Shown here: positions 1 to 15,129 of the stretch, piece after piece | How positions within the stretch are numbered: the first letter of the stretch is position 1 | Layout: every line of letters begins with the position of its first letter | Source of the DNA: a virus | Taxonomy: Duplodnaviria > Heunggongvirae > Uroviricota > Caudoviricetes | Length of the DNA: 15,129 nucleotides | Virus record (IMG/VR): IMGVR_UViG_2545824713_000012 | Direction: 5' to 3' (one strand) | Made by a program: the position numbers and the translations under genes | The notes under the pieces: generated by a model | What the model was told of the DNA's origin: nothing | The model's database searches: none | The model's input: only the letters and a program-made list of their open reading frames with translations

Positions 1-1284
1 TTACTTCTTCGCCTCTGCAACCACTTTACTACCCACGCCGCGGTTATTGTATTCCCACATGCGGTTGTAGTTAGTGTCATTCAGATTGCGCTGTATTTCG
101 TCGTTATCATCTACGCTGCCGGTATTACCCGCAAACGGACGATTAGAGATCACCGCATCGGCCCACGGTTTAGCCGTGTTAAAACCTTCGTTGATGGCGC
201 TATCACGGATCACCACCTGACCGTTGGTATTGGCATCAACATCCAGCGAGCGGCCCAGTTGCGCCACGCCATCACCGGAAGCATTGAAACGGCTGTTTAC
301 AGCGAGGAAACCGTAGTAAATGTTGGACAGCGTTGCCGGTGCAAACACATACGCTTCTTGCTGAGTACGTGAGTTCACCACGCGGAATTCGGTGTTATCG
401 AACACCACTGCGCCGCGACCAGAAACGATATCCACATCCCCTTCAATGTAGCTGTTGGTCACCAGCGTACGCGGCTGACGATTCGTTTCCAGACGGTTCT
501 GCACACCGCTGTTGGTGACAAAGAAGGTGTTCTGACGACCGAGAATGTTCACGTTGTTAATCTGTACCTGGTCACCATCAGTACGCAGTGCCACCGCCGG
601 ATGGTTACCCGCATCTACGCTATCGCCCAGCGTGTTTTCGATGGTCAGGTTTTGCAGTTGCAGGCCATTGTTTTGTGACCAGAAGACCGCTGAACAGAGA
701 ACACCGATACTGTTGCTGCGTTTGCTCTGGCAGCTATCGTACATATACCACGCTGGTTTACCTGGCATATATTTGCCGCGCGGGTTGACGTCGTGACGCC
801 AGTCGGCAGGGCTCATGCCCCCATCAAGGGAAAGCCCAATCTTCACATCAATCGGTTTTTCACCTGTACCGTACAGAGTAATTCCACCCGGAGCGGCAGG
901 AACATATACCGTTCCCTGATACTCACCTGGCATCACGGCAATATACTGGCGCTTGTTGGTACGCTTGATAATTGCCGCATCTACCGCCGCCTGAATCGTG
1001 GTATGCGTTACACCTTGAGTACCCGCCGGGCCGACAACAAAGTCAGGTTGCGCAGGCAGGGTAATCGGGGAAGGATTCCACGCTGCAGCACCTGGTGTCA
1101 GGGATGCAAAATAGTGTTGAGCATCGAAATTCTGCGCTTCTTTTGCCGACAGAATCGGGCGAGAAGAGGTACCAGGCGCGGTTTGATCAGAAGGACGTTG
1201 ATCGGGTGGTGTTGAGCTACAGGCGGTCAGCGTCACGCCAAAAGCCAATGCCAGCGCCAGACGGGAAACTGAAAATGTGTTCAC
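1..1284 (-). CDS. ybhC: YbhC, putative outer-membrane lipoprotein (pectinesterase-like fold / acyl-CoA thioesterase family); host gene flanking attB(lambda)
   Basis: 427-aa ORF starting MNTFSVSRLALALAFGVTLTAC (signal peptide plus lipobox LTAC); recognised from memory as E. coli YbhC; position 1-3 is the stop codon, so the CDS is complete. Confidence 0.9.
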   Translation of the reverse strand: MNTFSVSRLALALAFGVTLTACSSTPPDQRPSDQTAPGTSSRPILSAKEAQNFDAQHYFASLTPGAAAWNPSPITLPAQPDFVVGPAGTQGVTHTTIQAAVDAAIIKRTNKRQYIAVMPGEYQGTVYVPAAPGGITLYGTGEKPIDVKIGLSLDGGMSPADWRHDVNPRGKYMPGKPAWYMYDSCQSKRSNSIGVLCSAVFWSQNNGLQLQNLTIENTLGDSVDAGNHPAVALRTDGDQVQINNVNILGRQNTFFVTNSGVQNRLETNRQPRTLVTNSYIEGDVDIVSGRGAVVFDNTEFRVVNSRTQQEAYVFAPATLSNIYYGFLAVNSRFNASGDGVAQLGRSLDVDANTNGQVVIRDSAINEGFNTAKPWADAVISNRPFAGNTGSVDDNDEIQRNLNDTNYNRMWEYNNRGVGSKVVAEAKK

Positions 1285-1330: not shown

Positions 1331-1345
1331 GCTTTTTTATACTAA
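1331..1345. other. attL core (15-bp lambda-type overlap/core GCTTTTTTATACTAA) = host/prophage junction
   Basis: Exact lambda att core; left flank (tgaagcct) is the bacterial B arm next to ybhC, right flank is the phage P' arm directly upstream of the int 3' end. Confidence 0.9.
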
Positions 1346-1418: not shown

Positions 1419-2489
1419 TTATTTGATTTCAATTTTGTCCCACTCCCTGCCTCTGTCATCACGATACTGTGATGCCATGGTGTCCGACTTATGCCCGAGA
1501 AGATGTTGAGCAAACTTATCGCTTATCTGCTTCTCATAGAGTCTTGCAGACAAACTGCGCAACTCGTGAAAGGTAGGCGGATCCCCTTCGAAGGAAAGAC
1601 CTGATGCTTTTCGTGCGCGCATAAAATACCTTGATACTGTGCCGGATGAAAGCGGTTCGCGACGAGTAGATGCAATTATGGTTTCTCCGCCAAGAATCTC
1701 TTTGCATTTATCAAGTGTTTCCTTCATTGATATTCCGAGAGCATCAACATGCAATGCTGTTGGGATGGCAATTTTTACGCCTGTTTTGCTTTGCTCGACA
1801 TAAAGATATCCATCTACGATATCAGACCACTTCATTTCGCATAAATCACCAACTCGTTGCCCGGTAACAACAGCCAGTTCCATTGCAAGTCTGAGCCAAC
1901 ATGGTGATGATTCTGCTGCTTGATAAATTTTCAGGTATTCGTCAGCCGTAAGTCTTGATCTCCTTACCTCTGATTTTGCTGCGCGAGTGGCAGCGACAGG
2001 GTTTGTTGTTATATGGCCTTCAGCTATTGCCTCTCGGAATGCATCGCTCAGTGTTGATCTGATTAACTTGGCTGACGCCGCCTTGCCCTCGTCTATGTAT
2101 CCATTGAGCATTGCCGCAATTTCTTTTGTGGTGATGTCTTCAAGTGGAGCATCAGGCAGACCCCTCCTTATTGCTTTAATTTTGCTCATGTAATTTATGA
2201 GTGTCTTCTGCTTGATTCCTCTGCTGGCCAGGATTTTTTCGTAGCGATCAAGCCATGAATGTAACGTAACGGAATTATCACTGTTGATTCTCGCTGTCAG
2301 AGGCTTGTGTTTGTGTCCTGAAAATAACTCAATGTTGGCCTGTATGGCTTCAGTGATTGCGATTCGCCTGTCTCTGCCTAATCCAAACTCTTTACCCGTC
2401 CTTGGGTCCCTGTAGCAGTAATATCCATTGTTTCTTATATAAAGGTTAGGGGGTAAATCCCGGCGCTCATGACTTCGCCTTCTTCCCAT
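1419..2489 (-). CDS. int: Lambda-type tyrosine integrase Int
   Basis: 356-aa ORF MGRRRSHERRDLPPNLYIRNNGYYCYRDPRTGKEFGLG... matches lambda Int along its full length; 3' end abuts attL P' arm. Confidence 0.97.
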   Translation of the reverse strand: MGRRRSHERRDLPPNLYIRNNGYYCYRDPRTGKEFGLGRDRRIAITEAIQANIELFSGHKHKPLTARINSDNSVTLHSWLDRYEKILASRGIKQKTLINYMSKIKAIRRGLPDAPLEDITTKEIAAMLNGYIDEGKAASAKLIRSTLSDAFREAIAEGHITTNPVAATRAAKSEVRRSRLTADEYLKIYQAAESSPCWLRLAMELAVVTGQRVGDLCEMKWSDIVDGYLYVEQSKTGVKIAIPTALHVDALGISMKETLDKCKEILGGETIIASTRREPLSSGTVSRYFMRARKASGLSFEGDPPTFHELRSLSARLYEKQISDKFAQHLLGHKSDTMASQYRDDRGREWDKIEIK

Positions 2490-2685: not shown

Positions 2686-2929
2686 CGCAAAGTCTCCGCA
2701 ATTACACGCAAGAAAAAACCGCCATCAGGCGGCTTGGTGTTCTTTCAGTTCTTCAATTCGAATATTGGTTACGTCTGCATGTGCTATCTGCGCCCACAGC
2801 ATTCAGTGGTCATAGCAGTCGCTGATGTTCTCGGCTTCGATAACTCTGTTGAATGGTTCTCCATTCCATTCACCTGTGACTCGGAAGTGCATTTATCATC
2901 TCCATAAAACAAAACCCGCCGTAGCGAGT

Positions 2930-2962
2930 TCAGATAAAAGAAATCCTCGTCAGTGCGAGGAT
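2930..2962 (-). terminator. Putative intrinsic terminator for leftward transcription (7-bp stem ATCCTCG/CGAGGAT, 6-nt loop, T-rich tail on the minus strand)
   Basis: Minus strand reads CATCCTCGCACTGACGAGGAT followed by TTCTTTTATCTG; sits between the divergent AT-rich segment and xis. Confidence 0.45.
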
Positions 2963-3134
2963 GCTGTTCATTGCTGCTATACACTTTTTTGCTCTCAACG
3001 TAAGCGGTAGCCCATTCTGTTGGGTTGGTGCAGTTGCTTTTAGGAAATGCTATTTACCCCTTAAATGTCGGCTGAAAGAGCTAAAATCCATGCAAAAAAT
3101 TTACGCAATTTTGTGTATTATTGTGCAGTAAGTA

Positions 3135-3737
3135 ATGAGCTATTTTCTGCGCAAAAAATGGATGGTAAATTTGTCCGGGTCAGGAAAAATTTTATGGGCG
3201 CTAAACATGAAAAAAGATTCGTATCCTTATTTGATTTGCATGACAGTTTCAGGGCTGATCTTTATTTTCCTTTTCTTCTGGTGGCGGGCAGATATCTACA
3301 GGGTCACGTTTCTTAATCAGAGTATATCCCACTATTACATTCTGTTTAGCATGGGAATAGCTTTTCTGTTATCTCTGTTTTGGGTTAAGAAGGGGATAGT
3401 AAAACAAAGAGGCTGGAAGAGTCTGTCAGCATACCTTAAGGTTTATGCAGGGATGTGCATATTTGCAGGATTTTTTCTGATTATACCCCTTACGACACTA
3501 ACTTATTTTTTGCCTGGAGAGACATCGTCTTATGTTGCACCGTATCGGTATACTTCCGGTAGTTCAAAAAGTTGTTCTGGAGCTGAGGTGGATGACCCCG
3601 ATCTACATGAGAATATTCGCATTTGCTATCCGTATGGCAATTATGAGTACGATAATATTATCTATGTTGAAAAGAAAATTAATATATTAGGTGCGGTAGT
3701 GACATATGCACAGACCGCGCGTGATGATACTGAATGA
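3135..3737 (+). CDS. Hypothetical integral membrane protein (3 predicted TM helices plus ~75-aa Cys-containing C-terminal domain); opposite-strand moron replacing lambda ea8.5/ea22
   Basis: 200-aa ORF in AT-rich DNA; hydrophobic segments YPYLICMTVSGLIFIFLFFWW, YYILFSMGIAFLLSLFWV, YAGMCIFAGFFLIIPLTTLTYFL; basic loop KKGIVKQRGWK between TM2 and TM3. Start uncertain: in-frame ATGs at 3135, 3162 and 3207 (MKKDSY...), none with a strong SD. Confidence 0.55.
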   Translation: MSYFLRKKWMVNLSGSGKILWALNMKKDSYPYLICMTVSGLIFIFLFFWWRADIYRVTFLNQSISHYYILFSMGIAFLLSLFWVKKGIVKQRGWKSLSAYLKVYAGMCIFAGFFLIIPLTTLTYFLPGETSSYVAPYRYTSGSSKSCSGAEVDDPDLHENIRICYPYGNYEYDNIIYVEKKINILGAVVTYAQTARDDTE

Positions 3738-4751: not shown

Positions 4752-4912
4752 ACAGCTCCCCGTTTATTATTTATCTCCTCAGCCAGCCGCTGTGCTTTCA
4801 GGGGATTTCGGATAACAGAAAGGCCGGGAAATACCCAGCCTCGCTTCGTAACGGAGTAGACGAAAGTGATCGTGCCTACGCGGATATTATCGTGAGGATG
4901 TTTCATCGCCAT
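4724..4912 (-). CDS. Lambda Orf60a homolog
   Basis: [58 protein letters not shown]...; the lambda-length product would start at the second Met (4906). Confidence 0.8.
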
Positions 4913-5583
4913 TGCTCCCCAAATACAAAACCAATTTCAGCCAGTGCCTCGTCCATTTTTTCGATGAACTCCGGCACCATCTCGTCAAAACTCGCCATGT
5001 AATTTTCATCCCGCTCAACCACGACATAATGCAGGCCTTCACGCTTCATTCGTGGGTCATAGTTGGCAAAGTACCAGGCATCTTTTCGCGTCACCCACAT
5101 GCTGTACTGCACCTGGGCCATGTAAGCTGACTTTATGGCCTCGAAACCACCGAGCCGGAATTTCATGAAATCCCGGGAGGTAAACGGGCATTTCAGTTCA
5201 AGGCCGTTGCCGTCACTGCATAAACCATCGGGAGAGCAGGCGGTGCGCATACTTTCGTCGCGATAGATGATCGGGGATTCAGTAACATTCACGCCGGAAG
5301 TAAACTCAAACAGGGCTCTGGCGTCGTTCTCGTACTGTTTTCCCCAGGCCAGCGCCTTAGCATTAACTTCCGGAGCCACACCGGTGCAAACCTCAGCCAG
5401 CAGGGTGTGGAAGTAGGACATTTTCATGTCAGGCCACTTCTTTCCTGAGCGGGGCTTTGCTATCACGTTGTGAACTTCTGAAGCGGTGATGACGCCGAGC
5501 CGTAATTTGTGCCATGCATCATCCCCCTGTTCGACAGCTCTCACGTCGATCCCGGTACGCTGCAGGATAATGTCCGGTGTCAT
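4903..5583 (-). CDS. exo: Lambda exonuclease (Red alpha), 5'-3' dsDNA exonuclease
   Basis: 226-aa [72 protein letters not shown]... matches lambda Exo; ATGA overlap with bet. Confidence 0.97.
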
Positions 5584-7545: not shown

Positions 7546-8235
7546 CTACCCATGCTTCCTATATGTCTGCGGCATGCTCCCAATAACCTTACCGAAGATG
7601 AACACCCGGTTCATCTCGTCTTTCTCGATCGGGTCCCACGGTGAGTAGCTTTTGTTATCAGAGATGACCAGCAGCTTATTCTTCATCATTTGCAGGCGCT
7701 TTACATGGGCTGTGTCGTCGTACAGAAACGCATAGATACCATCACCGTCGAAAGATTTAACTGTGATATCAACGAACAGCAGATCACCTGGTTCGATCGT
7801 TCCTGACATGCTGTCACCACGCACGTTAATGATGCGGATATTTTCCGCCTTCCTACCATCGAACATGTGACGAGCATCGTCAAACGAGTACTCAACCGAG
7901 CGTAGAACTTCTACAAACTCACGGTTGATGACTCCCGGCCCAGCACTGACTTCTATATCAAGAACGTCAATCTTGAAGTATTTGGAATGGCTGACAGTTG
8001 ATTGTATTGGTTGCACTGTACTGTCTGACATATTTCCAACGCCAGAAGATAACCATTCTGCGCGCACACCCAAAGCGTTCGCGATCTCCACGATTTTAGT
8101 TGTTTGATTAGCTTTCCCTGTTTCGATTTTCTGAATAGCAGCCTGGCTAACCCCGACCAAATCCCCAAGCGCCTTTTGTGTAAGGCCTCGCGCTAATCTG
8201 GCTTCTTTAAGTCTTTCTGAGAGTGTTGTTTTCAT
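7546..8235 (-). CDS. CI-like prophage repressor (N-terminal HTH_XRE, C-terminal S24 LexA-type autopeptidase)
   Basis: MKTTLSERLKEARLARGLTQKALGDLVGVSQAAIQKIETGK... HTH; Ala-Gly site in VSAGPG; catalytic Ser in RGDSMSG and Lys in HVKRL. I prefer the ATG at 8235 (229 aa) over the ORF-track start at 8301 because the extra 22 codons would overlap the PR -35/operator. Confidence 0.85.
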   Translation of the reverse strand: MKTTLSERLKEARLARGLTQKALGDLVGVSQAAIQKIETGKANQTTKIVEIANALGVRAEWLSSGVGNMSDSTVQPIQSTVSHSKYFKIDVLDIEVSAGPGVINREFVEVLRSVEYSFDDARHMFDGRKAENIRIINVRGDSMSGTIEPGDLLFVDITVKSFDGDGIYAFLYDDTAHVKRLQMMKNKLLVISDNKSYSPWDPIEKDEMNRVFIFGKVIGSMPQTYRKHG

Positions 8236-8277
8236 AGTCCAAATGTACAACCAAGGTTTTATTCCATCAAACGAAAA

Positions 8278-8300
8278 TGGTTGTTGACTAAAAACAACCA
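8278..8300. promoter_or_regulatory. Candidate OR operator: 23-bp palindrome TGGTTGTT-N7-AACAACCA overlapping the PR -35
   Basis: Perfect 8-bp inverted arms; related half-sites ACAACCA/TGGTTGT recur at 8247-8253, 8324-8339 and in the PL region (7275-7281, 7294-7300). Confidence 0.5.
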
Positions 8301-8312
8301 TAGTTTTAATCT
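8284..8312 (+). promoter_or_regulatory. PR-like early rightward promoter (-35 TTGACT, 17-nt spacer, -10 TAATCT)
   Basis: Consensus-like sigma70 elements about 28 nt upstream of the cro-like ATG, which has SD GGAGG at 8330-8334. Confidence 0.6.
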
Positions 8313-8339: not shown

Positions 8340-8570
8340 ATGAACCCAGCTATCAAAACAGCGATCAATATCGTTGGTTCACAAAAGAAACTGGGCGCTG
8401 CTTGCGAAGTTTCACAGCAGGCCGTCTATAAGTGGCTTCACAACAAAGCAAAGGTATCCCCTGAACATGTCGGCAGCATTGTTACGGCTACTGGTGGAGT
8501 AGTGAAGGCATACCAGATTCGCCCGGATCTTCCGAAGTTGTTTCCACACACCGAAAAGAACGCAGCTTAA
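8340..8570 (+). CDS. Cro-like HTH regulator (YdaS family)
   Basis: 76-aa ORF MNPAIKTAINIVGSQKKLGAACEVSQQAVYKWLHNKAKVSPEHVGSIVTATGGVVKAYQIRPDLPKLF; HTH plus the C-terminal RPD motif I associate with Rac YdaS; divergent from the repressor across the PR/operator region. Confidence 0.8.
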   Translation: MNPAIKTAINIVGSQKKLGAACEVSQQAVYKWLHNKAKVSPEHVGSIVTATGGVVKAYQIRPDLPKLFPHTEKNAA

Positions 8571-8595: not shown

Positions 8596-8639
8596 TAAGC
8601 AATCAACTTAACAGTCAATTCAAACTAAAGGAGTCAATT

Positions 8640-9179
8640 ATGCAACCACTTACATACCAACAGACTAGCGGATTTAGCCCGACTGCGGTGATAAATCGTT
8701 CTCAAACAAAACAGGTGCCAGGCCACGAAAAAATCCGTGATGCCGTCCGCGCCTGGTCGGCTGTAGATAATCAGGATGTCGTTGCCACACTCATTGTGAA
8801 TGAGTATCGGGAGCAGGGCGGCGGCACCATCGATTTCCCTGATGATGTCAGCCGTGCACGCCAGAAGCTGTTCCGCTTCCTCGATAACAAATTCGATTCT
8901 GAAAAATACCGAAATAATGTGCGTGAACTGACCCCGGCAATTCTGGCGGTACTACCGCTGGAATATCGCGGTTACCTGGTTGAGCAGGATAGCTTCATGG
9001 CTAGGTTGGCTGAAATGGAAAAGGAACTCAGTGAGGCAAAACAGGCTGTCATTCTCAACGCACCACGCCACCAGAAACTGAAGGAAATTAGTGAAGGTAT
9101 TGTGTCGATGTTTCGTGTGGACCCAGATCTGGCTGGTCCATTGATGGCGATGGTTACTACCATGCTGGGGGCGATATGA
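8640..9179 (+). CDS. YdaT-family protein (Rac prophage YdaT-like, in the cII position)
   Basis: 179-aa ORF; segments LIVNEYREQGGGTIDFP and LTPAILAVLPLEYRGYL resemble Rac YdaT (EEYLRQGGGELPL, KLIPAILAILPRELRHR) from memory; strong SD AAGGAG upstream. Confidence 0.75.
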   Translation: MQPLTYQQTSGFSPTAVINRSQTKQVPGHEKIRDAVRAWSAVDNQDVVATLIVNEYREQGGGTIDFPDDVSRARQKLFRFLDNKFDSEKYRNNVRELTPAILAVLPLEYRGYLVEQDSFMARLAEMEKELSEAKQAVILNAPRHQKLKEISEGIVSMFRVDPDLAGPLMAMVTTMLGAI

Positions 9180-9265
9180 CAGGTTCAGAAATGGCGAAAG
9201 CCGGTCTGCTGGAACAGAACCGACTTTCAGGTGCAAATCGTAACACACTCATTGCGGGAGGAATT

Positions 9266-10195
9266 ATGGCAAACACTGCTGAGATATTCAATTTTCCAGT
9301 GCCGGATGCGGCACAAAAGGAGCCGCGCGTGGCAGATCTCGATGATGGTTATACGCGCATTGCAAATGAGTTGCTGGAAGCTGTGATGCTGGCCGGATTA
9401 ACACAGCACCAGCTTCTGGTCTTCCTGGCTGTCATGCGCAAAACATATGGCTTTAATAAAAAACTGGATTGGGTGAGCAACGAGCAACTTTCCGAGTTGA
9501 CCGGGATATTGCCGCACAAGTGTTCTGCTGCAAAAAGTGTTCTGGTAAAGCGTGGGATTTTTATTCAGAGTGGGCGGAATATCGGCATTAATAATGTGGT
9601 CAGTGAATGGTCAACATTACCCGAATCAGGTAAGAAAAATAAAGTTTACCTGAAAGAGGTAAATTTACCTGAATCAGGTAAGAAAAGTTTACCCAAATCA
9701 GGTAAAGGCGTTTACCCGAATCAGGTAAACACAAAAGACAAACTAACAAAAGACAATATAAAACCTTTTTCGTCCGAGAATTCTGGCGAATCCTCTGACC
9801 AGCCAGAAAACGACTTTCCTTTGGAGAAACTGGATGCTGCAATTCAGAGCGGCAGCAAGTGGGGGACAGCAGAAGACCTGACCGCCGCAGAGTGGATGTT
9901 TAACATGGTGAAGACCATCGCGCCCTCAGCCAGAAAACCGAATTTTGCAGGGTGGGCTAACGATATCCGCCTGATGCGTGAACGTGACGGACGTAACCAC
10001 CGCGACATGTGCGTGCTGTTCCGCTGGGCATGCCAGGACAACTTCTGGTCCGGTAACGTGCTGAGTCCGGCCAAACTCCGCGACAAGTGGACCCAACTCG
10101 AAATCAACCGTAACAAGCAACAGGCTGGCGTGACAACCGGAAAATCAAAACTCGACCTGACAAACACTGACTGGATTTACGGGGTGGATTTATGA
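9266..10195 (+). CDS. O: Lambda O-type replication initiator
   Basis: MANTAEIFNFPVPDAAQKEPRVADLDDGYTRIANELLEA... aligns with lambda O N-terminus (MTNTAKILNFGRG...VADLDDGYARLSNMLLEA); C-terminal third is nearly identical to lambda O; SD GGGAGG before the ATG at 9266; the ORF-track start at 9176 is an upstream in-frame extension. Confidence 0.93.
   Translation: MANTAEIFNFPVPDAAQKEPRVADLDDGYTRIANELLEAVMLAGLTQHQLLVFLAVMRKTYGFNKKLDWVSNEQLSELTGILPHKCSAAKSVLVKRGIFIQSGRNIGINNVVSEWSTLPESGKKNKVYLKEVNLPESGKKSLPKSGKGVYPNQVNTKDKLTKDNIKPFSSENSGESSDQPENDFPLEKLDAAIQSGSKWGTAEDLTAAEWMFNMVKTIAPSARKPNFAGWANDIRLMRERDGRNHRDMCVLFRWACQDNFWSGNVLSPAKLRDKWTQLEINRNKQQAGVTTGKSKLDLTNTDWIYGVDL
9617..9773. repeat. Replication origin inside O: five 17-19-bp palindromic iterons (TTTACC-N7-GGTAAA) followed by an A/T-rich tract
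   Basis: Iterons at 9617-9633, 9645-9663, 9664-9682, 9688-9706, 9711-9729 (e.g. TTTACCCGAATCAGGTAAA), then ACACAAAAGACAAACTAACAAAAGACAATATAAAACCTTTTT; same organisation as lambda ori but different iteron sequence. Confidence 0.75.
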
Positions 10196-10893
10196 AAAAC
10201 ATCGCCGCACAGATGGTTAACTTTGACCGTGAGCAGATGCGCCGGATCGCCAACAACATGCCGGAACAGTACGACGAAAAGCCGCAGGTACAGCAGGTAG
10301 CGCAGATCATCAACGGTGTGTTCAGCCAGTTACTGGCAACTTTCCCGGCGAGCCTGGCTAACCGTGACCAGAATGAACTGAACGAAATCCGCCGCCAGTG
10401 GGTTCTGGCTTTCTGGGAAAACGGGATCACCACAATGGAACAGGTTAACGCTGGAATGCGCGTAGCCCGTCGGCAGAATCGACCATTCCTGCCATCACCC
10501 GGGCAGTTTGTCGCCTGGTGCCGGGAAGAAGCATCCGTTACCGCCGGGCTGCCAAACGCCAGCGAGCTGGTTGATATGGTTTACGAGTATTGCCGGAAGC
10601 GCGGGCTGTATCCGGATGCAGAGTCTTATCCGTGGAAATCAAACGCGCACTACTGGCTGGTTACCAACCTGTATCAGAACATGCGGGCCAATGCGTTGAC
10701 TGACGCGGAATTACGGCGCAAGGCTGCCGATGAACTGTCCTGTATGACCGCACGAATTAACCGTGGTGAGGCTATACCTGAACCAGTAAAACAACTTCCT
10801 GTCATGGGCGGTAGACCTCTAAATCGTGCACAGGCTCTGGCGAAGATCGCAGAAATCAAAGCTAAGTTTGGGCTGAAAGGAGCAAGGGTATGA
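10192..10893 (+). CDS. P: Lambda P replication protein (DnaB helicase loader)
   Basis: 233-aa ORF MKNIAAQMVNFDREQMRRIANNMPEQYDEKPQVQQVAQIINGVFSQLLATFPASLANRDQNE... near-identical to lambda P; ATGA overlap with O. Confidence 0.95.
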   Translation: MKNIAAQMVNFDREQMRRIANNMPEQYDEKPQVQQVAQIINGVFSQLLATFPASLANRDQNELNEIRRQWVLAFWENGITTMEQVNAGMRVARRQNRPFLPSPGQFVAWCREEASVTAGLPNASELVDMVYEYCRKRGLYPDAESYPWKSNAHYWLVTNLYQNMRANALTDAELRRKAADELSCMTARINRGEAIPEPVKQLPVMGGRPLNRAQALAKIAEIKAKFGLKGARV

Positions 10894-11192
10894 CGGGCAA
10901 AGAGGCAATTATTCATTACCTGGGGACTCATAAGAAATTCTGTGCGCAGGACGTTGCCGCGGTAACAGGCGCAACGGTAACCAGCATAAATCAGGCTGCG
11001 GCTAAAATGGCGCGGGCAGGAATCCTGGTCGTTGATGGTAAGGTCTGGCGAACGGTGTATTATCGGTTCGCTACCAGAGAAGAATGGGAAGGAAAGGTGA
11101 GCACGAATTTGATTTTTAAGGAGTGTCGCCAGAGTGCCGCGATGAAACGGGTATTGAGGGTATATAAAAGAACATCAATGGGTACACAATGA
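10890..11192 (+). CDS. ren: Ren-like protein with divergent C-terminus
   Basis: MTGKEAIIHYLGTHKKFCAQDVAAVTGATVTSINQAAAKMARAGILVVDGKVWRTVYYRFATREEWEGK... matches lambda Ren up to ...AAMKRVL, then ends RVYKRTSMGTQ instead of the lambda tail. Confidence 0.85.
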   Translation: MTGKEAIIHYLGTHKKFCAQDVAAVTGATVTSINQAAAKMARAGILVVDGKVWRTVYYRFATREEWEGKVSTNLIFKECRQSAAMKRVLRVYKRTSMGTQ

Positions 11193-11259
11193 TGAAACAG
11201 GTGAGTTGAGTTCAAACTGTAGTACAATTCTCTCCAGTTTGAACAGGAAAGAATATGCT

Positions 11260-11592
11260 ATGAATCCTTATATTTATCTTGGTGGTGCAATACTTGCAGA
11301 GGTCATTGGTACAACCTTAATGAAGTTTTCAGAAGGTTTTACACGGTTATGGCCATCTGTTGGTACAATTATTTGTTATTGTGCATCATTCTGGTTATTA
11401 GCTCAGACGCTGGCTTATATTCCTACAGGGATTGCTTATGCTATCTGGTCAGGAGTCGGTATTGTCCTGATTAGCTTACTATCATGGGGATTTTTCGGCC
11501 AACGGTTGGACCTGCCAGCCATTATAGGCATGATGTTGATTTGTGCCGGTGTGTTGGTTATTAATTTATTGTCACGAAGCACACCACATTAA
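11260..11592 (+). CDS. emrE: EmrE small multidrug resistance (SMR) efflux transporter
   Basis: 110-aa product MNPYIYLGGAILAEVIGTTLMKFSEGFTRLWPSVGTIICYCASFWLLAQTLAYIPTGIAYAIWSGVGIVLISLLSWGFFGQRLDLPAIIGMMLICAGVL... matches E. coli EmrE; the ORF-track start at 11206 is an upstream extension; SD AGGA before 11260. Confidence 0.9.
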   Translation: MNPYIYLGGAILAEVIGTTLMKFSEGFTRLWPSVGTIICYCASFWLLAQTLAYIPTGIAYAIWSGVGIVLISLLSWGFFGQRLDLPAIIGMMLICAGVLVINLLSRSTPH

Positions 11593-11622
11593 AAATAATT
11601 TGTTTTTAAACGACTAAAATAT

Positions 11623-11660
11623 GGAGGCTCGTATATTTATATGGGCCTCGTTTTATGCTT
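11623..11660 (+). terminator. Possible imperfect terminator hairpin after emrE
   Basis: GAGGC...GCCTC stem with a long AT loop followed by GTTTTATGCTTTTTG; weak. Confidence 0.3.
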
Positions 11661-11847
11661 TTTGTTAATGTCTTTAGTTTTTATTCATTCTTTTGTGCTT
11701 TCAAGATTATGGTGTAAGAAAATTGCAATACGATTATTGTTGTATATTCAAGATAATGTGACCTTAATTGTCTTTTTAAATAAAAATTAAACAAAAATCA
11801 TATCTCACCACTAAGGTTTATAAAAGCATACTTTAGCAGGTGTCACC

Positions 11848-13374
11848 ATGAAAAAAGCCATAGCATATATGCGATTTTCATCACCAGGTCAGATGTCTGG
11901 TGATTCATTAAACCGCCAGAGAAGGCTTATTACTGAATGGCTAAAGGTAAATAGTGATTATTACCTTGATACCGTAACGTATGAAGATTTGGGGTTAAGC
12001 GCATTCAATGGAAAGCATGCACAATCAGGAGCTTTTTCGGAATTTTTAGATGCTATAGAACATGGTTATATATTGCCAGGGACTACATTGTTAGTTGAAA
12101 GTCTGGACAGACTTTCAAGAGAAAAAGTCGGTGAAGCGATTGAGCGTCTGAAATTGATTTTGAATCACGGTATTGATGTTATAACTCTTTGCGATAATAC
12201 AGTCTATAATATTGACTCATTGAATGAGCCATATTCATTAATAAAAGCCATACTTATAGCACAAAGGGCAAATGAAGAAAGCGAGATAAAGTCAAGTCGG
12301 GTTAAATTATCATGGAAGAAAAAACGGCAGGATGCACTGGAGTCAGGCACGATTATGACGGCGTCTTGTCCGAGATGGCTCTCATTGGATGACAAAAGAA
12401 CGGCTTTTGTTCCAGACCCCGACAGGGTGAAAACTATTGAGCTAATTTTTAAACTCAGGATGGAAAGGCGCTCATTGAATGCAATAGCCAAGTATTTAAA
12501 TGATCATGCTGTAAAGAATTTCTCAGGAAAAGAAAGTGCATGGGGACCTTCTGTAATTGAAAAATTATTAGCGAATAAAGCTCTGATAGGTATATGCGTA
12601 CCTTCATATCGTGCAAGAGGTAAAGGAATAAGTGAAATCGCTGGCTATTATCCCAGAGTCATATCAGATGATTTGTTTTACGCTGTGCAGGAAATTCGGT
12701 TGGCACCTTTTGGTATTAGCAATAGTAGCAAAAATCCTATGTTGATAAATCTACTTCGAACAGTTATGAAGTGCGAGGCTTGTGGTAATACCATGATTGT
12801 TCATGCGGTATCTGGAAGTTTGCATGGCTATTATGTTTGTCCGATGAGAAGACTGCATCGATGTGACAGGCCATCAATAAAGAGAGATTTGGTTGATTAT
12901 AATATCATTAATGAGTTGCTTTTTAATTGTAGTAAAATCCAACCAGTTGAAAACAAGAAAGATGCTAATGAAACTTTAGAGTTGAAAATTATTGAGCTCC
13001 AGATGAAAATTAATAATTTAATTGCTGCATTATCTGTTGCGCCTGAAGTTACCGCTATAGCAGAAAAAATCAGAGTATTAGATAAGGAATTACGAAGGGC
13101 TTCTGTATCATTAAAAACTTTGAAGAGTAAAGCGGTGAGTTCACTTGGTGATTTTCATGCTATTGACTTAACCAGTAAAAATGGGCGAGAGCTATGTCGT
13201 ACACTTGCCTATAAAACATTCGAAAAAATCATAATCAATACAGATAATAAAACCTGTGATATCTATTTTATGAATGGCATTGTTTTTAAACACTATCCTT
13301 TAATGAAAACAATATCTGCCCAGCAGGCGATAAGTACTCTCAAATATATGGTTGATGGTGAGGTTTATTTTTGA
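11848..13374 (+). CDS. ybcK: Large serine recombinase (YbcK family; N-terminal resolvase/invertase catalytic domain, recombinase and zinc-ribbon domains)
   Basis: 508-aa ORF MKKAIAYMRFSSPGQMSGDSLNRQRRLITEWLK... with catalytic Ser in the YMRFSS motif; matches DLP12 YbcK as remembered; SD AGGTG upstream; AT-rich. Confidence 0.85.
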   Translation: MKKAIAYMRFSSPGQMSGDSLNRQRRLITEWLKVNSDYYLDTVTYEDLGLSAFNGKHAQSGAFSEFLDAIEHGYILPGTTLLVESLDRLSREKVGEAIERLKLILNHGIDVITLCDNTVYNIDSLNEPYSLIKAILIAQRANEESEIKSSRVKLSWKKKRQDALESGTIMTASCPRWLSLDDKRTAFVPDPDRVKTIELIFKLRMERRSLNAIAKYLNDHAVKNFSGKESAWGPSVIEKLLANKALIGICVPSYRARGKGISEIAGYYPRVISDDLFYAVQEIRLAPFGISNSSKNPMLINLLRTVMKCEACGNTMIVHAVSGSLHGYYVCPMRRLHRCDRPSIKRDLVDYNIINELLFNCSKIQPVENKKDANETLELKIIELQMKINNLIAALSVAPEVTAIAEKIRVLDKELRRASVSLKTLKSKAVSSLGDFHAIDLTSKNGRELCRTLAYKTFEKIIINTDNKTCDIYFMNGIVFKHYPLMKTISAQQAISTLKYMVDGEVYF

Positions 13375-13398
13375 GTAATAATCACTTTTTCAACCGTG

Positions 13399-13476
13399 CT
13401 ATAGTAAGAAAGTTAGGTAAGTACAATAAAATTATCTATCCTGAACGAAGCGTCCTGAGCTATGGTTTTACTATAG
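13399..13476. repeat. Inverted repeat pair CTATAGTAA(G/A)AA ... TTTTACTATAG flanking about 60 bp, between ybcK and the next ORF
   Basis: 9-bp perfect (12-bp imperfect) inverted repeats at 13399-13407 and 13468-13476; the right copy lies just upstream of the SD (AGGGA) of the 107-aa ORF. Confidence 0.4.
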
Positions 13477-13485
13477 GGACTGCCA

Positions 13486-13809
13486 ATGGATGCTGGCGTT
13501 CTCGTTCTAGCAGTTCAACAATCCCCAATCACAAAACAATTCACTGATAACGAACTTTGCACACTCGCCTGGTTATGGCGAGCAGGGAATGTGATGTTAA
13601 TTACCTACCAGAACGTTACTCCTCTTCTTCAGGTTGCGGAGCATCGTGAAGCTGGTCGCTTCACTTCTATCGAGCAAGAATATCCCCAGATACTCAACAG
13701 AGCGCGAGCAATCCTCGTCCGAGAAACGGCACATGTAAAACTTCAGCCGTGGCAGGATGATAAGTGGAGTCGAGTATTGCCGCATTTACCTCAGAATCTG
13801 TTTCAATAA
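13486..13809 (+). CDS. Hypothetical 107-aa protein (no family recognised)
   Basis: ORF MDAGVLVLAVQQSPITKQFTDNELCTLAWLWRAGNVMLITYQNVTPLLQVAEHREAGRFTSIEQEYPQILNRARAILVRETAHVKLQPWQDDKWSRVLPHLPQNLFQ with SD AGGGA 6 nt upstream. Confidence 0.5.
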   Translation: MDAGVLVLAVQQSPITKQFTDNELCTLAWLWRAGNVMLITYQNVTPLLQVAEHREAGRFTSIEQEYPQILNRARAILVRETAHVKLQPWQDDKWSRVLPHLPQNLFQ

Positions 13810-13983
13810 AGGCGCTAGTTAGTAAGGCTTCCGTCATTCTGCGATGACGGAAGTGCGGGCTGCGTACGGGAGAGCAATTGCATGAATAATATAAATATTC
13901 CGCTCACTCCATATAGCGATTTCTGATACAAACTTATCTATTGTGGTAAAATTATAGAAACAAACTTATAGCGTACTAACCAT

Positions 13984-14679
13984 ATGGACAATATTAATAA
14001 ACACGGGCTCTCAAGAAGAATACCTGAGACAATAAAACGTCAGATAAGGCAAAGGTGCGGCTTTGGCTGTGTAATTTGTGGATTTGGATTTTATGATTAT
14101 GAGCATTTTAAACCTGACTTCGTTGATGCCAAAGTACATGATCCGAATGGAATGACACTTCTTTGCTCCCAATGCAATCAAAAAAGAGCTCGTGGTAGAC
14201 TTTCAGCACAGACAGTGGAAATAGCTGACAGAAATCCCAAGTGCTTACAGGCTGGTTTTGCAAATGAAATGTTTGATTTTCATAATGAGCCTATAACAGT
14301 AAAATTTGCAGGAGTGACGTTTCATAACTGTCAAAATTTGATTGTAGTCAACGAACAACCCATTCTTTCTGTGAAACCTTCACCCATACCACATGGACCG
14401 ATGCTTTTATCAGGAATTTTCTGTAATTCTATTGGTAAGGAGACTTTACTGATAGATGAAAATGAATGGAAAGCTAAATCAGACAATTGGGATGTGGAGT
14501 GTACCGGCCCGCGTATAACAATACGACGTGGGCCAGGAGAGTTTGCCCTCGTTCTAAAAATGGAACCTCCAACAGGATTGATTGTTGAGCGTCTTGATAT
14601 GTTGTATGAAGGGGTCAGGATGAAAGGAGATAAAGATCTGCTGGAAGTTTTGAACCGCCCCGGGAATCCTGGAGACTAA
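13984..14679 (+). CDS. HNH-motif nuclease-domain protein with uncharacterised C-terminal domain; 3' end disrupted by IS insertion (last 9 codons are IS-derived)
   Basis: N-terminal CGFGCVIC...YDYEHFKP...[15 protein letters not shown] fits the HNH (beta-beta-alpha-Me, two CxxC) pattern; ORF is in frame into the IS terminal repeat starting at 14651, so the native C-terminus is missing; no SD seen. Confidence 0.6.
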
Positions 14680-14704
14680 ACTTCCTGAGAAAGAGGTAAA
14701 CAGG

Positions 14705-15031
14705 ATGACTAAAAATACTCGTTTTTCCCCCGAAGTCCGTCAACGGGCAGTCCGTATGGTTCTGGAAAGTCAGAGCGAATATGACTCACAATGGGCGACA
14801 ATTTGTTCCATTGCTCCAAAGATTGGCTGTACGCCGGAGACTCTGCGTGTCTGGGTTCGCCAGCATGAGCGGGATACCGGGGGCGGTGATGGAGGGCTCA
14901 CCACCGCTGAACGTCAGCGTCTGAAAGAGCTGGAACGTGAAAATCGTGAACTGCGCCGCAGTAACGATATCCTTCGCCAGGCTTCCGCTTATTTTGCGAA
15001 GGCGGAGTTCGACCGCCTCTGGAAAAAATGA
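14705..15031 (+). CDS. IS3-family transposase OrfA (HTH DNA-binding subunit)
   Basis: 108-aa [111 protein letters not shown]. Confidence 0.9.
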
Positions 15032-15129
15032 TGCCACTGCTGGATAAGCTGCGTGAGCAGTACGGGGTCGGACCGCTATGCAGCGAACTGCATATTGCCC
15101 CGTCAACGTATTACCACTGTCAGCAACAG
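15027..15129 (+). CDS. IS3-family transposase OrfB (DDE catalytic subunit), 5' partial within window
   Basis: -1 frame relative to orfA; [34 protein letters not shown]...; overlaps the orfA stop across an A-rich slippery stretch (GGAAAAAATGATG). Confidence 0.8.

Follow-up and report, generated by a model that had tools for sequence, protein, structure and literature searches.

Phage morons are extra genes lying between otherwise adjacent phage genes, a concept that is said to go back to Juhala et al. in 2000. They have been reviewed (PMC3594210), and the multidrug transporter EmrE has been assigned to lambda-like phages twice, as a resistance gene or a moron: Mathieu et al. 2020 found it in two lambda-like phage genomes (PMC6969025), and Misson et al. 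2023 found it among the morons induced in DMEM medium in Perceval, an active prophage (PMC9928086). In Escherichia coli K-12 the cryptic prophage DLP12 has the gene order renD-emrE-ylcJ-ybcK. Here we analysed 15,129 nucleotides (nt) of Caudoviricetes DNA (IMG/VR record IMGVR_UViG_2545824713_000012; this whole stretch is called the window below), in which ren, emrE, ylcJ and ybcK follow the replication genes O and P. The stretch covers the left half of a lambdoid prophage in the lambda attachment site.

An earlier note on this DNA had described the 3' end of ren as a mosaic junction that joins lambda-type replication genes to a DLP12-like emrE-ybcK block. We find a genuine junction, but an ordinary one that had been documented before: it is the left edge of a well-populated lambdoid cargo slot. 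With a probability of about 0.85, lambdoid phages have a variable slot between ren and the nin genes, and the break is its left edge, made by an old single join of which DLP12 is a decayed descendant. As a discovery it carries little weight: the arrangement is annotated in K-12, roughly one complete E. coli genome in four has it, and active lambda-like phages that contain it have been described. The view of emrE as prophage cargo was supported and had been published before (PMC6969025, PMC9928086).

The break in ren

Ren of the window was 88% identical to lambda Ren and matched PHROG 142 ('Ren-like exclusion protein', E=1e-41). By this homology and by its position directly behind P it belongs with lambda Ren, a protein that protects the phage from Rex exclusion. 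It matched lambda through residue 92 (..V-Y), after which the tail reads KRTSMGTQ-stop in the window versus GVKR-stop in lambda. The divergence that the earlier note had placed in about the last 10 residues is real, but the divergent tail is 8 residues long and starts after codon 92.

The DNA alignment of the window with lambda gave 93.6% identity over 1438 aligned columns, and nothing matched beyond 11165. The same right-hand limit was found against 434, SfI, Stx1a phages and PhiR5_1. Ungapped identity to lambda fell from 91-92% over the 60-100 nt preceding 11165 to 30% past this position, and that to PhiR5_1 from 90-93% to 28-32%. This collapse of identity at one position against both phages indicates a true sharp break and no gradual decay. 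The G+C content changed from 0.50-0.54 in ren and P to 0.36 for 11166-13413.

At least three alternative sequences, unrelated to each other, were found after the motif GGTATAT. In lambda, 434 and SfI it is followed by ninA/orf26, a terminator and ninB; in PhiR5_1 by small open reading frames (ORFs) and then a rha gene; and in the window, DLP12, Perceval and strain c1-17 by emrE. In lambda-type phages the divergent stretch opens with GGAG and an ATGA overlap, where a ribosome binding site for the next small ORF is annotated in 434. These motifs suggest that the boundary may coincide with the translation signals of the downstream gene, which overlap the last ren codons.

The 94 nt specific to the junction (variant ren tail and emrE leader) were present in 11 records of the phage collection, all of them emrE-carrying, and nowhere else in that collection. 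An IS1203/IS629 insertion sequence (IS) begins at about 14654, 3.5 kb downstream, and could point to an assembly chimera or to a strain-specific rearrangement tied to this IS. Such an artefact is refuted by the junction itself, which is identical or nearly so in many independent complete genomes and in the 11 phage records, and by otherwise identical prophages from which the IS is missing. In one viral contig (L033, 1980-3310) a 1331-bp insertion interrupts the DNA precisely at the ren junction, with a 5-bp duplication of 11159-11163 on its flanks; by size and duplication it might be IS2. We also considered whether 11188-11211 could be what is left of the 3' end of a second ren allele, as ATGAAACAGGTGAGTTGA resembles ATGAAACGGGTATTGAGG, but dropped this: a degenerate pattern scan of the viral contigs for a ren with such an end gave no match.

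Only 73 nt lie between ren and ninB in lambda, 434 and SfI; in lambda they are taken up by the short ORF ninA/orf26 and a terminator. The window shares with lambda P and ren codons 1-92, a terminator behind them and the slot between ren and the nin recombination genes, but it holds about 2.3 kb of AT-rich cargo, with the terminator after emrE. Other cargo was found in the same slot in Perceval, PhiR5_1, PhiR12_1 and DLP12, whereas the slot is empty in lambda, 434 and SfI. The block resembles phage morons in being extra DNA between otherwise adjacent genes, in its deviating base composition (given above), in having its own terminator and in encoding a membrane protein of benefit to the host. 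It differs from a typical moron in comprising two units and a recombinase rather than a single gene, and its promoter is a candidate only.

The label 'lambda-type replication genes' held for P and for the P-interacting C-terminal part of O, but not for the N-terminal domain of O or the iterons. Left of 9729 there was no similarity to lambda, the O N-terminus being of a different type. Five non-lambda iterons, TTACC(C/T)GAATCAGGTAA, lie inside O at 9617-9733, and lambda similarity begins right after them. The origin specificity is therefore not that of lambda, although O resembles lambda O at its P-interacting end. O has 339 amino acids (aa) in the window versus 299 aa in lambda, and the gene is a mosaic in its own right.

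Comparison with DLP12 and spread of the arrangement

In a three-way alignment of the window, DLP12 and lambda, all agreed up to GGTATAT; beyond it DLP12 was identical to the window and lambda departed. The window and DLP12 are collinear over the 3' part of P (peaD), ren, emrE, ylcJ and ybcK, with 94-96% identity. The alignment falls into two pieces, 10582-10980 and 10979-13413, the second of which corresponds to renD fragment 2, emrE, ylcJ and ybcK (95.9% identity), and IS3C alone separates them in K-12. Furthermore, the end of exo (window 4877-5182) matched exoD, which adjoins peaD in K-12. Since DLP12 is collinear left of the break into P, it has lambda-type P and ren of its own, is a decayed copy of the same architecture and contains no new join. 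DLP12 is the P-ren-emrE-ylcJ-ybcK layout after an exo-to-P deletion and an IS3 hit in ren, and the window is the intact state. A mosaic junction exists only relative to lambda-type phages (lambda, 434, SfI and PhiR5_1), and there is none relative to DLP12.

The gene order that the earlier note had attributed to DLP12 was confirmed, and alignment with DLP12 and other prophages, the check it had proposed, excluded a lack of relationship. Its junction to a DLP12-like block stands as a break against lambda between 11165 and 11166, but DLP12 continues across this break and the arrangement is a shared ancestral one. O and P are intact ORFs as it had said, but this is a common state rather than an exception, as 975 of the 5426 complete E. 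coli genomes covered at least 80% of the segment from O through ybcK. This corrects the picture of DLP12: it is a decayed representative of a phage lineage that still lives and has emrE behind working O and P, and the standard laboratory emrE is therefore transmissible phage cargo.

The window and DLP12 share the variant ren tail, the 67-nt spacer between ren and emrE, the ybcK promoter motif, and identity to 39 nt past ybcK. DLP12 differs in the deletion from exo to P, in IS3C within ren, in its location at argU with intD and in ybcL-ybcM after ybcK, whereas the window is intact, has the lambda att site and a lambda-type int, and carries a rha remnant and an HNH-like ORF after ybcK. As for DLP12-type membership, collinearity including ybcN-ninE-ybcO-rusA-ylcG-quuD-porin-essD-rrrD-nohD was found, but integration at argU with intD was not.

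The ren-emrE-ybcK arrangement was present in 1399 of the 5426 complete E. coli genomes (about a quarter), counted at 80% or more coverage of window 11100-13400. Twelve phage records covered at least 80% of 8600-13400, including Lambda_4C10, 4A7, 1W, 3W, Perceval, Turner and several PhiR phages. Perceval (from E. coli LF82), Lambda_4C10, 4A7, 1W, 3W, Turner and PhiR47_2 were collinear with the window through the gene in the cII slot, O, P, ren, emrE and ybcK, with 96-97% identity over a 4.8-kb query, and the 94-nt junction was identical to that of the window in most emrE-carrying lambda-like phages. Their immunity regions are different from that of the window: one part of the repressor is about 89% identical, and the sequence beyond it is unrelated. 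Different cargo is also found right of ybcK, such as an alpha/beta hydrolase in Perceval.

In all 80 viral-contig loci with ybcK, emrE and this ren variant were on its left, barring insertion or loss of similarity. A left neighbour that is constant in 80 loci argues for a single ancestral join. The block was found at different att sites, namely lambda att in the window and argU with intD in K-12, and with different immunity regions. Such variation of integrases, att sites and immunity regions is expected from homologous recombination in conserved flanks, in line with the established model of lambdoid mosaicism. A plasmid or integron context for emrE-ybcK was rejected: the full-length 'plasmid' matches were records of 1.3 and 4.9 Mb, which are chromosome-sized, and true plasmids contained only distant qac genes (68-73% identity).

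emrE, ybcK and the origin of the block

As the earlier note had stated, emrE starts exactly 67 nt after ren (ren stop ending at 11192, emrE ATG at 11260) and is followed by the large serine recombinase gene ybcK. EmrE of the window is an SMR transporter by its full-length profile matches (Pfam PF00893, E=2.1e-35, residues 3-94 of 110; PHROG 1395, E=4e-58) and by its near-identity to EmrE of K-12, from which it differs at 1 of 110 residues (99% identical). The essential membrane-embedded residue of EmrE is Glu14, which is present here in MNPYIYLGGAILAEV. The phenotype expected of such a transporter in a lysogen is resistance to quaternary cations.

The block is composite. A second emrE lineage, with about 92% DNA identity, occurs in about 2270 genomes and matched only window 11183-11600, after which ybcL-ybcM follows directly. 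For example, in strain MNCRE44 (L006, 8001-10252) the second emrE lies between fliE and yedF and is followed by ybcL-ybcM without ylcJ-ybcK, and after these by fragments resembling the ylcH region and the 3' end of quuD. ybcL-ybcM and these fragments indicate that the fliE-yedF island is the remnant of another lambdoid prophage. Between the window emrE and the fliE-island copy, nonsynonymous divergence (dN) was 0.004 and synonymous divergence (dS) 0.42 (dN/dS about 0.01). E. coli holds two emrE lineages, the second old and in another prophage remnant, both under strong purifying selection. Capture of a host emrE by imprecise excision was rejected: the gene is internal and AT-rich, and both of its genomic contexts are prophage-derived.

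Compared with the fliE-yedF copy, DLP12 has 2083 extra bp between emrE and ybcL (L001, 5156-7238), which comprise the terminator, ylcJ, ybcK and about 300 bp past ybcK. In the fliE-yedF remnant emrE and ybcL are 168 nt apart, with 4 unmatched nt between the aligned blocks. This filled and empty pair, together with the behaviour of the YbcK family as terminal prophage integrases elsewhere, raises the possibility that only ylcJ-ybcK (from about 11601) is the remnant of a second element or phage, which would have landed after an emrE that was already cargo beside ybcL-ybcM. We hold this only tentatively. The emrE lineages are old (dS 0.42), and on sequence grounds an insertion of ylcJ-ybcK or its deletion in the fliE-island lineage would explain the pair equally well. 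Moreover, the window lacks the right-hand end that the segment has in K-12, and the emrE/ybcL junction sequences showed no convincing att-like symmetry, crossover dinucleotide or other att-like feature.

It is very unlikely that the whole of emrE-ylcJ-ybcK is a nested integrative element, perhaps still mobile, for which the 3' end of ren served as attB in a site-specific insertion by YbcK. Such an element would account for the sharp left edge, the foreign G+C content, and an intact YbcK that keeps all its catalytic residues under purifying selection and has relatives, 56-59% identical, at prophage ends like phage integrases, one of them about 540 nt from ssrA. It conflicts with the approximately 2270 genomes that have emrE-ybcL-ybcM without ylcJ-ybcK and break at 11600 rather than 11165, and with the same ren breakpoint in PhiR5_1-type cargo and in lambda, which have no such recombinase in the slot. 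The block was not seen in any other target at the loci examined. No att-like direct or inverted repeats were found at both edges of the block; the matches were short and at chance level, among them a direct repeat of 12 nt (11600/13280) and an inverted one of 16 nt (11949/13375). The right edge is also variable, as the right ends of similarity in the 80 viral loci were at 13383, 13413, 13657, 13789, 13860 and 14653. Window 13499-13860 was 86% identical to the 3' end of PhiR5_1 rha and the DNA just after it. The ORF at 13486-13809 is thus a 3' remnant of a rha gene whose 5' part has given way to the cargo.

For the old single join that we favour, the proposed course is as follows. The slot is filled by AT-rich foreign DNA of two separable units, emrE with its conserved leader and the terminator-ylcJ-ybcK segment. 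The join to ren would have been made once, long ago, right after codon 92, where other lambdoid lineages also switch, most likely by illegitimate recombination; Ren retains 92 residues with the tail alone altered. The later spread presumably took place through homologous recombination between conserved flanking sequences (P/ren to the left, the nin genes to the right).

A strong intrinsic terminator was found behind emrE (fold of -19.9 kcal/mol, z=-3.9, with 0 of 200 shuffles as good), roughly at the position of the lambda/434 terminator between ren and ninB, which in lambda is tR2. As the first strong terminator past ren comes only behind emrE, this gene should be transcribed with cro-O-P-ren, and on induction this would occur from pR. 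It is probably also expressed alone in the lysogen from its leader, as reported for the Perceval block. The 59 nt before the emrE ATG differ at 2 positions between the two emrE lineages, in spite of the synonymous divergence of 0.42, and conservation so far above that of synonymous sites points to a functional leader. The leader contains the Shine-Dalgarno sequence AGGAAAG and a candidate promoter, GTGAGT-16-TACAAT, at 11201-11228.

Several observations weigh against this account. The candidate promoter has a weak -35 element, and at a threshold of 9 of 12 matches a consensus scan of the ren-emrE spacer gave no sigma-70 site. In LB, the Perceval genes that exceeded background 5-fold did not include emrE (PMC9928086), so that autonomous expression is conditional at best. 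At the join, no flanking repeats or microhomology were found, and the original joining mechanism is not recoverable from the sequence. Finally, ybcK has no known function, hence 'cargo' is a label for it rather than a mechanism.

The ren-emrE spacer also contains an imperfect 13-nt inverted repeat (11210-11222/11232-11244, 12 of 13 pairs) with a perfect 10-nt core, GTTCAAACTG/CAGTTTGAAC. It spans the candidate emrE -10 element and stops just short of the Shine-Dalgarno sequence. DLP12 keeps it, whereas the fliE-island lineage shows a single mismatch in an arm. The repeat could be an operator. A stable RNA element was rejected, as the fold was no better than shuffles (z=-0.8). No riboswitch or known RNA was found in the spacer; in an Rfam scan, which covered the whole window, the only matches were the IS3-family ALIL pseudoknot and one put down to chance.

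YbcK has the Resolvase (PF00239), Recombinase (PF07508) and Zn_ribbon_recom (PF13408) domains, all above the cut-offs. Y7, R9, S11, Q15, D87-R88-L89-S90-R91 and the four Zn-ribbon cysteines were the same in all aligned relatives, which included proteins with as little as 30% identity. The dN/dS against K-12 was 0.066, indicating purifying selection. The motif GTGACC-17-TAAAAA upstream of ybcK is listed in a K-12 genomic SELEX table, in a row also marked HNS (PMC3946193). The only phenotype that we found for ybcK in the literature is a link to sabinene tolerance (PMC7181518), and a sequence search found no solved structure for YbcK.

In domain architecture and catalytic motif YbcK is like the phiC31/Bxb1-type large serine integrases, and its relatives, mainly in Enterobacterales, include some at prophage termini. 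A relative in Atlantibacter (L092, 7001-9432; 59% identical) lies at a prophage end about 540 nt from ssrA (the tmRNA gene), one in Yersinia (L094, 7001-8530; 56% identical) at the boundary between two prophages, and one in Pantoea (42% identical) in a mobile-element region with a relaxase. With relatives in these three contexts, the family looks like prophage or mobile-element integrases, and the locations suggest that its members may be genuine prophage integrases. In contrast to those integrases, ybcK is internal, about 10.5 kb from attL here and internal in the strain 600468 prophage too, rather than in the position of an integrase, and the prophage has its own tyrosine Int/Xis. YbcK is not the integrase used by this prophage; the lambda-type Int/Xis beside the lambda att core does the job. 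The gene is intact and selected even in cryptic DLP12, relatives sit at prophage ends and a filled/empty pair exists after emrE. On these grounds YbcK might still be active, as a second or alternative integration system or in swapping cargo in the ren-nin slot, with the segment from 11601 as the footprint of an element, but we consider this improbable. The conservation of an intact serine recombinase within such phages is of some interest.

Layout of the window

The features of the window are collected in Table 1. The prophage of strain 600468 was 99.99% identical to that of the window, without the IS, and its annotation continues with ylcH, ybcN, ninE, ybcO, rusA, ylcG, quuD, porin, essD, rrrD and nohD. 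From ren to nohD the annotated genes of 600468 are the DLP12 set, except for two genes after ybcK.

Table 1. Positions of the genes, boundaries and other features discussed, in window coordinates
Feature	Position	Strand	Remarks
ybhC	1-1284	-	
lambda att core GCTTTTTTATACTAA (attL)	1331-1345		next to ybhC
int	1419-2489		lambda-type, tyrosine; then xis, exo, bet, gam, kil
S24-family repressor	7546-8301		
cro	8340-8570		
YdaT-domain protein	8640-9179		in cII position
O	9176-10195		intact ORF
lambda-like segment: O C-terminal part, P, ren codons 1-92	9729-11165	+	93.6% to lambda 39119-40555
P	10192-10893		intact ORF
P 3' part (last 310 nt) and ren start	10582-10980	+	peaD and renD fragment 1; 94.0% to K-12 (L001) 2877-3275
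ren	10890-11192	+	100 aa; start overlaps P stop at 10890-10893
Recurrent mosaic breakpoint GGTATAT / AAAAGAA	11159-11172		cut between 11165 and 11166
Junction-specific 94 nt	11166-11259	+	variant ren tail (11166-11192) and emrE leader
emrE	11260-11592	+	SMR efflux transporter, 110 aa
Boundary of emrE unit and ylcJ-ybcK segment	11600/11601		
Intrinsic terminator after emrE	11624-11649	+	T-rich tail to 11659; 11-pair stem, terminator scan
ylcJ	11641-11790	+	small hydrophobic ORF, 49 aa; Pfam PF23688 YlcJ, E=2e-30; annotated in K-12
ybcK promoter motif GTGACC-17-TAAAAA	11758-11786	+	exact match to K-12 listing
ybcK	11848-13374	+	intact large serine recombinase, 508 aa
Last stretch collinear with K-12 DLP12	13375-13413	+	K-12 alignment ends at 13413
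Rha/antirepressor-type 3' remnant	13486-13809	+	107-aa ORF, P22AR_C domain, Pfam PF10548
HNH-like ORF	13984-14679		Cys-rich motifs; cut by IS1203/IS629 copy
IS1203/IS629 copy	about 14654-15129		ALIL frameshift pseudoknot at 14986-15102

A PADLOC search gave zero matches for Ren, EmrE, YlcJ, YbcK, the rha remnant, the HNH-like ORF and a 200-aa ORF at 3135-3737, and an anti-phage defence role for these proteins was dropped. The 200-aa ORF is read from the plus strand, has xis on one side and the early-left genes on the other, encodes a predicted membrane protein and is probably another cargo gene. The product of the gene in the cII position has 179 aa with a YdaT_toxin domain and is not a lambda-type CII; several phage records label the YdaT-domain gene 'cII'. 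The HNH-like ORF is intact in strain 600468, where it encodes 260 aa.

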